DNA from: a virus
Lineage: Duplodnaviria; Heunggongvirae; Uroviricota; Caudoviricetes
Direction: 5' to 3' (one strand)
Length of the DNA: 6,330 nucleotides
Virus record (IMG/VR): IMGVR_UViG_2734482547_000007
Shown: piece after piece, positions 450 to 6,330 of the stretch
Layout: the number at the start of each line of letters is the position of its first letter
Position numbering within the stretch: position 1 is the stretch's first letter
Translations under genes and position numbers: made by a program
Notes under the pieces: model-generated
Told to the model about the DNA's origin: nothing
The model's input: the letters and a program-made list of their open reading frames with translations, nothing else
Database searches by the model: none

Positions 450-790
450 CGACTTTTACCAGAGAGCAGTTAATAGCTCACGCAGAGGAGACTATTGAAG
501 CACAGAGACTGTGCATACCGGGCACAATCGACCATGACATCATCCGCACATATAAGATGGATATTGCTGTTCTGGAAATCGCACTGGTATCGCTGGCAGC
601 AGAGCCAGCCGGTAAATTGCATGAATACAAACCAGTGGGATATCAGCGTCTGGTCGATGAGTTAACCATGCTGGTAAAGCAGTTAACCTGGCAACTGAGG
701 AAAGCGAAGCCAGACTGCAAATTACCGGATAAGGCGATGAGTTATCTGGAGCGGAACGGACTGATAAGCGTGGAGGATATTTTACGATGA
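446..790 (+). CDS. Hypothetical protein (114 aa), paralog of the 282..449 ORF
   Basis: ORF-track ORF; GAAGG 9 nt upstream; N-terminus [12 protein letters not shown] and motif [10 protein letters not shown] parallel the upstream ORF; its stop overlaps the next ATG (ATGA at 787-790). Confidence 0.6.
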
Positions 791-870
791 CCTGGCCTGA
801 AGCATTAACAACGGTAGGAATTGCGATGGCGGTGGCGCTGGTGGTGTATTCGATTTGCCGCTGGGGATAA
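787..870 (+). CDS. Small hydrophobic peptide (27 aa), predicted single transmembrane segment
   Basis: ATG at 787 with GGAGGA about 10 nt upstream; translation [27 protein letters not shown]; start overlaps the upstream stop. Short length limits confidence. Confidence 0.4.
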
Positions 871-876
871 AAACGG

Positions 877-905
877 TTTGCGGGAAAAGGAGAGTTAAGT
901 AGAAT
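877..905 (+). promoter_or_regulatory. Candidate promoter for the hok mRNA (-35 TTTGCG/TTGCGG, -10 TAGAAT at 900-905)
   Basis: Sigma70-like hexamers with 16-17 bp spacing, placed so the transcript would start near 912 at the tac element. Confidence 0.35.
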
Positions 906-911
906 TGCAGC

Positions 912-923
912 GGGTGCTTGAGG
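912..923 (+). promoter_or_regulatory. hok mRNA 5' element (tac-like) that can pair with the 3' fbi-like element at 1287..1299
   Basis: GGGUGCUUGAGG (912-923) pairs with CCUCAAUGCACCC (1287-1299) as 12 bp with one bulged U. Nearby, CTATCTG (924-930) pairs with CAGATAG (954-960). Confidence 0.5.
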
Positions 924-960
924 CTATCTGTCTCAGGCATGAACACCAAAAGGCAGATAG

Positions 961-1033
961 AGAAAAGCCCCAGTTAACATTACGCGTCCGGCAAGACGCT
1001 TAACATTAATCTGAGGCTCAATCTATGAACGGC
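961..1033 (-). ncRNA. sok: Candidate sok-like antisense RNA opposing the hok leader and mok start
   Basis: Minus-strand promoter-like hexamers inside the 5' end of the upstream reading frame: -35 TTGCCT (complement of 1063-1068), 17-bp spacer, -10 TAACCT (complement of 1040-1045). A GCGTC/GACGC hairpin (984-999) lies in the predicted transcript. Ends are approximate. Confidence 0.3.
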
Positions 1034-1081
1034 AAATCTAGGTTAGCCTCTTACGTGCCGAAAGGCAAGGAGAAGCAGGCT

Positions 1082-1237
1082 ATGAAGCAGCAAAAGGCGA
1101 TGTTAATCGCCCTGATCGTCATCTGTTTAACCGTCATAGTGACGGCACTGGTAACGAGGAAAGACCTCTGCGAGGTACGAATTCGAACCGGCCAGACGGA
1201 GGTCGCTGTCTTCACAGCTTACGAACCTGAGGAGTAA
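1082..1237 (+). CDS. hokD: Hok-family type I toxin (51 aa, membrane-damaging peptide), HokD/RelF-like
   Basis: Translation MKQQKAMLIALIVICLTVIVTALVTRKDLCEVRIRTGQTEVAVFTAYEPEE matches Hok-family architecture and my recollection of E. coli HokD. AAGGAG 9 nt upstream. An in-frame ATG at 1025 with GAGG SD occupies the position of mok. Confidence 0.85.
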   Translation: MKQQKAMLIALIVICLTVIVTALVTRKDLCEVRIRTGQTEVAVFTAYEPEE

Positions 1238-1286
1238 GAGACCAGGCGGGGGAGAAATCCCTCGCCACCTCTGATGGGTCAGGCAT

Positions 1287-1299
1287 CCTCAATGCACCC
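1287..1299 (+). promoter_or_regulatory. hok mRNA 3' fold-back (fbi-like) element complementary to 912..923
   Basis: See the 912..923 pairing; an 8-mer TCAGGCAT also occurs at both 933-940 and 1279-1286. Confidence 0.45.
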
Positions 1300-1305
1300 A
1301 CACTT

Positions 1306-1326
1306 AACCCGCTTCGGCGGGTTTTT
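1306..1326 (+). terminator. Rho-independent terminator ending the hok transcript
   Basis: Stem CCCGC/GCGGG with a TTCG loop (1308-1321) followed by TTTTT. Confidence 0.7.
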
Positions 1327-1345
1327 GTTTTTATTTTCAACGCGT

Positions 1346-5743: not shown

Positions 5744-5819
5744 GGCCCTTTAGCTCAGTGGTGAGAGCGAGCGACTCATAATCGCCAGGTCGCTGGTTCA
5801 AATCCAGCAAGGGCCACCA
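5744..5819 (+). tRNA. tRNA with CAU anticodon, most similar to tRNA-Ile2 (lysidine type; ileX/ileZ-like); tRNA-Met not excluded
   Basis: Cloverleaf checked by hand: acceptor GGCCCTT/AAGGGCC, D-arm GCTC...GAGC, anticodon loop CUCAUAA, T-arm GCTGG-TTCAAAT-CCAGC, encoded CCA. Near-identical in layout to E. coli ileX as I recall it. Confidence 0.8.
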
Positions 5820-5826
5820 TCACATA

Positions 5827-5862
5827 CCGCCATTAGCTCATCAGGAAAGAGCGCCAGCCTTC
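5827..5862 (+). tRNA. 5' part of a second tRNA, cut by the N gap; anticodon starts U-C-, so Arg (UCU/UCG) is most likely
   Basis: Acceptor 5' strand, U8-A9, D-arm GCTC...GAGC and anticodon stem are readable; loop reads CUUC then Ns. Arg is favoured by analogy with ileZ-argN-argO arrays in Stx-type phages. Confidence 0.4.
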
Positions 5863-5926
5863 NNNNNNNNNNNNNNNNNNNNNNNNNNNNNNNNNNNNNN
5901 NNNNNNNNNNNNNNNNNNNNNNNNNN
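5863..5926. other. Run of 64 N (assembly gap or masked sequence) inside the tRNA array
   Basis: Seen directly in the sequence. Confidence 0.99.
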
Positions 5927-6258
5927 GAATCCCCCTGTGCGGAGGGGCAATCAGCGAGTAGGTATATGGGATAATCGCGGATTCAGGTGCTGGTACTGAA
6001 TTCACCGGGAGGCACCCGGCATCATGCAATGGCACATAGCGCCACTCTCCAGCCCTCTCCGGAGGGGCTTTTCTGTGCCGGATACATCACAGTTTCTGGA
6101 ACCTTAGGTACTACAGTATCAGTCAGGGTGCTATATTTTCAGATGTGATGAAAGCCTGTCAGCAGGCAGGGCGTATCGGAAATGACCCAGTAGAGAAAAC
6201 GTTGACTCAGATACCGGTGCTGAGTTACCGGGAAACCGGCATCACATGACCGCTATCC

Positions 6259-6330
6259 TGAGGTGTACTGGCAATAGCGGACACTACCATTTGTTCTTTT
6301 TTTAAGCAGCCATCTGATGATATTTTTCCC
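6259..6330. repeat. Right copy of the 72-bp terminal inverted repeat (partner 1..72)
   Basis: Reverse complement of 6259-6330 equals bases 1-72. Confidence 0.9.

Follow-up and report, generated by a model that had tools for sequence, protein, structure and literature searches.

Positions 877–1332 of the window (the whole 6,330-nucleotide stretch analysed here, from the Caudoviricetes record IMGVR_UViG_2734482547_000007 of IMG/VR) hold the gene for a 51-residue toxin of the Hok family, an upstream reading frame, mok, that runs into hok in the same frame, an mRNA leader whose 5′ end can pair with a site downstream of hok and, on the minus strand, a candidate Sok antisense RNA with its own promoter (Table 1). 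We read this region, with a probability of about 90%, as an intact hok-mok-sok type I toxin-antitoxin module of the hokD/hokW type, situated in the nin region of a lambdoid Escherichia coli prophage. The initial annotation of this DNA had proposed a complete hok/sok-type locus inside a prophage, and every element that it listed is present where it was placed. The locus is already known: it is a textbook, ordinary prophage cassette, and annotations of its arrangement, with the upstream reading frame in phase with hok, go back to about 2000, and most E. coli genomes contain it.

Table 1. Features of the hok-mok-sok locus, in the numbering of the window (SD, Shine-Dalgarno sequence).
Feature	Positions	Strand	Details	Basis
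Putative hok mRNA promoter	877..905	+	Weak −35 TTTGCG (877–882), 17-nt spacer, −10 TAGAAT (900–905); probable +1 at about 912	
Full-length hok (mok-hok) mRNA	912..1332	+	About 416–421 nt	Rfam, fold, homologs; probable ends from homology and the terminator
tac (translational activator) element	912..923	+	5′ end of the mRNA	Two folds; nearly invariant in 37 loci
Leader hairpin	924..960	+	CTATCTGTCT / AGGCAGATAG	Fold and covariation in 37 loci
Candidate Sok antisense RNA	963..1033	−	71 nt	Collinear with annotated sokW and sokC; fold; probable ends from homology
ucb (anti-SD box)	966..971	+	AGCCCC; predicted to hold the mok SD in the full-length mRNA and to pair with tac after 3′ trimming	Folds
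Sok-target hairpin	1013..1051	+	mok SD GAGG (1013–1016) with dcb AGCCTC (1046–1051); mok AUG in the stem-loop	Fold of the truncated mRNA
mok reading frame	1025..1237	+	70 aa; 19 leader codons, then Hok	ORF translation; counterpart of annotated mokW and mokC
Sok promoter	1040..1068	−	−35 TTGCCT (1068–1063), 17-nt spacer, −10 TAACCT (1045–1040)	
hok toxin gene	1082..1237	+	51 aa	Pfam PF01848; RefSeq hokD annotation on homologous loci; cluster names
fbi (fold-back inhibitory) element	1287..1299	+	Complementary to tac	Fold, conserved site, covariation
Intrinsic hok mRNA terminator	1306..1332	+	AACCCGC-TTCG-GCGGGTT and T run	Terminator scan (1306–1323) and fold

The toxin gene and its setting

The 51-residue product matches the Pfam family HOK_GEF over the entire profile (positions 1–42 of 42) with 81.6 bits against a cut-off of 22 (E = 3e-23), and it is identical to HokD of E. 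coli K-12, so that its description as an unambiguous Hok-like peptide holds. HokD is reported to be toxic on overexpression (bioRxiv 10.1101/2025.08.07.668861). The hok start codon is preceded at a distance of 9 nt by the SD sequence AAGGAG (1067–1072), which is invariant in an alignment of 37 hok loci. That the window encodes a distinctive or new Hok variant was considered and rejected, because the 51-residue and 70-residue sequences are each found on at least 1,000 public contigs. Very short contigs assigned to 'Acinetobacter idrijaensis' (275 nt) and 'Xanthomonas pisi' (431 nt) and a metagenome-assembled genome named 'Candidatus Scatousia' have 96–100% identity to HokD; these matches in non-enterobacterial assemblies are probably E. 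coli contamination.

The sequence TACGAA within 1219–1225 (TTACGAA, including the Tyr47 codon TAC at 1220–1222) is invariant in 37 of 37 aligned hok loci. For hokB, editing of A to I by TadA (Tyr to Cys) in this tRNA-Arg-like TACGAA context has been reported, and the introduction of a preprint mentions TadA editing for hokC, hokD and hokE (bioRxiv 10.1101/2025.08.07.668861).

Downstream of the hok locus are a DUF968 (YdfU-like) gene, rusA, the gene for antiterminator Q, a DNA methylase gene and a tRNA, in an order that matches the K-12 Qin prophage and phage vB_EcoS-689R5. Matches to region 877–1340 occur in 4933 of 5426 complete E. coli genomes, at roughly 12,000 places in total, with at least 80% of the region covered in 3920 of these genomes, a median of 2 copies per matching genome and a maximum of 9; the region also matches 78 phage records. 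The enrichment of hok in prophages has already been reported by a recent survey (bioRxiv 10.1101/2025.08.07.668861). The annotation of 877–1332 is correct but carries little weight as a discovery: addiction and lysis-timing modules of this kind are common in prophages. RefSeq-style annotation usually marks hokD alone at such loci and misses mok and Sok, so a fuller annotation is possible.

Several other features of the window were recorded. Its first 72 bases (1–72) match its last 72 (6259–6330) perfectly in reverse complement; the most likely cause is an artefact of the assembly graph at the ends of the contig rather than a biological one. At 5744–5819 there is a tRNA with anticodon CAT, and a second tRNA-like start at 5828 runs into a masked run of N (5863–5926). 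The Rfam sRNA family STnc100 matches at 5898–6080 (69.8 bits against a gathering score of 47), and there is a weak second STnc100-like match near the window end (6119–6307, 21.8 bits). Directly upstream of the hok promoter is an unlisted ORF for a hydrophobic peptide of 27 residues (787–870, plus strand), the ATG of which overlaps the stop codon of ORF 446–790 as ATGA; in homologous loci the same position carries the annotation of a small hypothetical protein.

Structure of the hok mRNA

A covariance-model search with Rfam, one of the checks suggested with the initial annotation, returned RF01794 at 912–1087 (112.4 bits, gathering score 59, E = 9e-26), a full-length match that covers model positions 1–157. 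RF01794 ('sok') is the sole hok/sok family in Rfam and its consensus ends at the hok AUG. Since the match is on the hok-sense strand, it demonstrates homology of the leader and does not bear on an antisense transcript or on the Sok strand. Matches to isrK and rsmX at 1240–1327 (25.7 and 23.3 bits), well under their gathering scores, were rejected as terminator-driven noise.

The position of the putative hok −10 element agrees with those of hokC (TATAAT) and plasmid R1 (TATGAT), which lie 6–8 nt before the conserved 5′ end (GGGTGCTTGAGG / GGCGCTTGAGG). A generic sigma-70 consensus scan (9-of-12 rule) missed both the hok promoter and the Sok promoter, whose weak hexamers fall below its threshold, and the assignment relies on homology to a −10 element of sokW that has been mutated experimentally. 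The sole sigma-70-like site from the scan is at 1346–1375 on the plus strand (TTGAAG, 18 nt, TAGAAT), just after the hok terminator and upstream of a 94-residue ORF (1455–1739) that has no Pfam match.

Two alternative folds were predicted for the transcript. The minimum-energy fold of 912–1327 has a free energy of −168.5 kcal/mol (z = −7.9), and none of 100 dinucleotide shuffles folded as well. In this fold the 5′ end (GGGTGCTTGAGG) pairs with CCTCAATGCACCC at 1287–1299 through 12 bp with one bulge, the long-range tac/fbi pairing that had been noticed from the letters, and AGCC at 966–969 pairs with part of the mok SD region (1015–1018). When the last 43 nt are removed (912–1284), tac switches to the AGCCCC box, and the mok SD (GAGGCU) pairs with AGCCUC to form a hairpin that presents the mok AUG. 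These full-length and truncated folds are the same closed and open forms that have been described for the R1 mRNA, and the ucb box corresponds to the R1 aSD at A70–C74 (PMC9841398).

The structure was examined across related loci, 53 of which were fetched from species-representative genomes, with 37 sequences aligned for the structure test. A site complementary to tac occurs about 45–56 nt after the hok stop codon in 35 examined loci from Escherichia, Kluyvera, Photorhabdus, Pantoea and Citrobacter. In the alignment, 90.5% of the cells of the tac/fbi helix are paired, and one of its pairs is U-A in 23 sequences and C-G in 12; most of the apparent mismatches come from Photorhabdus loci without the bulge, for which direct duplex calculation gives perfect pairing. 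The leader stem CTATCTG / CAGATAG (924–933 with 951–960) is paired in 92.7% of cells, with three pairs changed on both sides. One of its pairs is A-U in the window and U-A in an R1-type locus, so that the compensatory change which the initial annotation had suspected is real, and both leader pairings are maintained in homologs. For the whole window fold, 84.5% of cells are paired on the 37 loci compared with 40–47% when the partners are slid by 1–3 columns. A total of 38 pairs change on both sides, and the observed covariation was matched by 0 of 500 shuffles. Within the ucb box, positions G56, C57, C58 and C59 are invariant.

The candidate Sok antisense RNA and its variable 5′ tail

The region read as Sok (1033 to 963) folds with −29.9 kcal/mol (z = −5.6) into an unpaired 5′ tail, a long hairpin and a U tail, and it is collinear with the sokW misc_RNA of AP000422 (71 nt) and with K-12 sokC. 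Its single-stranded 5′ tail, of about 14–18 nt, is predicted to be complementary to the mok start region. The minus-strand promoter had been judged to be in the right place for Sok, and sequence comparison supports this: the segment 1040–1100, which includes the promoter, is identical in VT2-Sakai, where primers YO-421/422 replace this same TAACCT −10 element to give a promoter-less sokW mutant in which HokW toxicity is released (PMC8621323). On the mRNA side, the GAGG and GCCTCTT segments of the Sok-target hairpin are invariant in the 37-locus alignment.

The part of this region that does vary is sharply confined. Among 66 distinct leaders from viral contigs with an identical HokD, variability along the transcript peaks at about 1027–1038 (1.21 bits, compared with at most 0.55 elsewhere), a patch that lies in the loop of the Sok-target hairpin and comprises mok codons 2–5 on the plus strand and also nt 1–7 of Sok, in its 5′ tail, on the minus strand. 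The sharpest variation within it falls at 1027–1032, over mok codons 2–3. At least 19 different Mok N-termini are found among these leaders, including MLYTR, MLDTC, MLNTC, MNGKS and MSHKC. Similarly, over 990–1100 the window differs from VT2-Sakai only at 1024 and 1028–1039. As judged from the sequences, this pattern suggests that Sok specificity variants exist, and the variable patch may set the specificity of Sok between co-resident prophage copies.

The mok reading frame

From the mok ATG at 1025 to the hok ATG the distance is 57 nt (19 codons), in the same frame and with no intervening stop codon, and the resulting 70-residue ORF would give an N-terminally extended Hok, as the initial annotation had stated. 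The mok ATG is at least 90% conserved in the 37 loci and the GAGG located 8 nt upstream of it is invariant; alignment with R1 and chromosomal hok loci confirmed the frame relationship. The same spacing of 57 nt, in frame and with a shared stop codon, is found in the annotated mokW/hokW pair of VT2-Sakai (213 and 156 nt), the annotated mok/hok pair of Stx2a_F422 and the annotated mokC/hokC pair of K-12, and an R1-type plasmid variant with an identical Hok (locus L004) also has 57 nt, in frame. The spacing is 58 nt and out of frame in K-12 mokB/hokB and in the R1-identical plasmid p1658/97, in which mok encodes an unrelated 70-residue peptide. The earlier statement that R1 mok overlaps hok in another frame was therefore accurate, and published R1 coordinates agree with it (mok start at T117/G118, hok start codon at G176; PMC9841398). 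The window departs from this R1-type arrangement (58 nt, +1 frame) and is grouped with mokC and mokW, not with R1 and mokB.

The initial annotation had also implied that an in-frame mok is unusual, and this part did not stand. In addition to being annotated for mokC/hokC and mokW/hokW, an in-frame mok predominates in this clade: of 44 species-representative loci, 30 have an in-frame ATG at −19 codons, 8 have an out-of-frame ORF at 58 nt and 6 have neither, and among 80 IMG/VR viral contigs with an identical HokD the frame is shared in 66, the spacing is 56 nt in 11 and the leader is absent in 3. At 56 nt the mok stop codon TGA overlaps the hok ATG as ATGA. The exact 70-residue protein of the window is itself on at least 1,000 public contigs, under the names 'type I toxin-antitoxin system Hok family toxin' or 'HokC/D'. 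As regards mokC and mokW, the literature searched contained no passage that describes either as in frame, and the claim for both rests on record coordinates and translations made here.

A continuous ORF of this kind invites the reading that ATG 1025 is the true start of a single 70-residue Hok-family toxin with the internal ATG 1082 unused, and several pipelines do annotate the 213-nt CDS alone (as the 'host killer protein' of phage 689R5 or as a 70-residue 'Hok family toxin'). The spacing variants speak strongly against it, as loci with an identical Hok have the upstream ATG at 58 nt or 56 nt, so the 19-residue extension cannot be required for the toxin. Furthermore, a strong, invariant SD lies before ATG 1082, the Pfam domain begins only at residue 25 of the 70-residue ORF, K-12 hokD exists entirely without the extension, and HokW produced from the equivalent of ATG 1082 alone (primer YO-357) is toxic (PMC8621323). 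A single 70-residue toxin lacking a separate hok start is thus exceedingly improbable, and on the strength of the spacing variants, the hok SD, K-12 hokD and HokW toxicity we reject it in favour of a 51-residue Hok translated from its own start codon downstream of the mok ATG.

Spacings of 56, 57 and 58 nt were all found among loci with identical Hok, and their coexistence argues that the mok frame itself is neutral. Three mok frames combined with the same toxin fit the published view that only the translation of mok up to the hok initiation region matters (PMC9841398). Two more far-reaching ideas can be put forward: that the 70-residue Mok-Hok read-through product is a second toxin isoform with a distinct function in the hokC/hokD/hokW clade and, separately, that codons 2–5 and the Sok tail are under diversifying selection against cross-neutralisation of co-resident copies. 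We consider these speculative and unlikely. The text of PMC8621323 on hokW western blots makes no mention of whether there were two FLAG-tagged species (70 and 51 residues). The variation in the mok frame and in the Sok-recognition patch provides cheap natural experiments, and it is in keeping with the published conclusion on mok translation to the hok start.

Proposed mechanism

From the homologous systems we infer how the module at 877–1332 would work, in terms of its transcript ends, 3′ processing, Sok expression, translational coupling, toxicity and biological role. If it behaves as R1 and hokW do, the weak promoter would give rise to a stable mRNA of about 420 nt, which pairing of tac with fbi would lock shut while ucb holds the mok SD. 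Slow 3′ trimming would remove fbi, whereupon tac would pair with ucb and the mok SD would move into the SD/dcb hairpin. The opened mRNA would be bound by the unstable Sok RNA and then decay through RNase III. Where Sok has been depleted, the opened mRNA would instead be translated from the mok ATG, and ribosomes moving over the 19 leader codons would open the hok initiation region, allowing synthesis of the 51-residue membrane toxin and damage to the inner membrane. With mok in frame, any ribosomes that fail to terminate would make the 70-residue extended Hok as well.

For relatives of this locus, Hok toxicity, suppression by Sok and cleavage of the duplex by RNase III are known from hokW-sokW (PMC8621323) and R1 (PMC9841398). 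After treatment with mitomycin C, sokW vanishes in a RecA-dependent manner, HokW precedes the endolysin by about 1 h, and phages are released faster (PMC8621323).

An alternative is that the locus, although intact in sequence, is silent, a chromosomal hok copy that has been domesticated or is decaying and has lost its ability to kill. Several chromosomal hok loci have been concluded to be non-killing; earlier work cited in the introduction of a preprint found no post-segregational killing by chromosomal hokA, hokB and hokC (bioRxiv 10.1101/2025.08.07.668861), and an intact sequence at 877–1332 is for this reason no proof of activity. Individual copies could moreover be redundant in genomes that carry up to 9 of them (median 2), and the promoter hexamers are weak. 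On the other hand, no element of the locus is disrupted, its Hok is identical to HokD, which is reported to be toxic on overexpression (bioRxiv 10.1101/2025.08.07.668861), and hokW-sokW, with 92.9% identity, shows activity in its native prophage (PMC8621323). In addition, the covariation and the high degree to which tac, ucb, SD, dcb and fbi are conserved indicate that the RNA switch is still under selection. We therefore regard a silent copy as very unlikely, and favour an intact module of the hokD/hokW type.

Comparison with known hok systems

The closest known relative is hokW-mokW-sokW of the Stx2 prophage Sp5 / VT2-Sakai / 933W (AP000422; PMC8621323), with 92.9% DNA identity over 93% of the region. 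The window and VT2-Sakai both have a 70-residue in-frame mok, a 51-residue hok and a 71-nt antisense Sok (predicted in the window), and their Sok promoter, hok SD, tac, ucb and dcb are identical. They differ in Mok codons 2–5, which correspond to the Sok 5′ tail (MNGKS in the window, MLNTC in VT2-Sakai), and in the last residues of Hok (FTAYEPEE in the window, FVDYESEK in HokW). An intrinsic terminator follows hok in the window whereas VT2-Sakai has none at that spot, and the prophage positions differ, as the window locus is upstream of DUF968-RusA-Q and the Sp5 locus is near the far end of the prophage record.

The plasmid R1 system (hok-mok-sok, parB) has the same elements in the same order, namely tac, ucb, mok SD, dcb, hok SD and fbi, together with an antisense Sok (predicted in the window), and its leader stem differs from that of the window by compensatory changes. 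The two are distinguished by mok, which in R1 is 58 nt upstream of hok, in a different frame, and encodes an unrelated 70-residue peptide, whereas in the window the distance is 57 nt, in frame. Locus L004, a close R1-type plasmid variant with an identical Hok, has mok at 57 nt and in frame.

In the hokC (gef)-mokC-sokC locus of K-12, mokC (69 residues) and hokC (50 residues) are in frame, 57 nt apart, and share a stop codon. The overall leader architecture and the Rfam family are the same as those of the window, and the toxin is about 80% identical to the window Hok. The Sok hairpin of hokC is shorter, which makes its leader about 20 nt shorter than that of the window, and its fbi element has been lost to an IS186 insertion.

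A further comparison is with hokD (relF) of the K-12 Qin prophage. The Hok proteins are identical, the DNA is 97.8% identical over 1068–1340 of the window, including fbi and the terminator, and the downstream neighbours are the same, with the DUF968 protein (YdfU) followed by the antitermination protein (ydfT). In K-12, however, relBE is fused directly upstream of hokD, and for this reason K-12 derivatives match the window over 1068–1340 only: relE ends just upstream, and the hok SD and gene remain. K-12 hokD thus lacks tac, the leader stem, ucb, mok, the Sok gene and the Sok −10, all of which are intact in sequence in the window, in agreement with what the initial annotation had said of the K-12 locus. 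The locus described here provides a picture of the truncated K-12 hokD before relBE displaced its control region.
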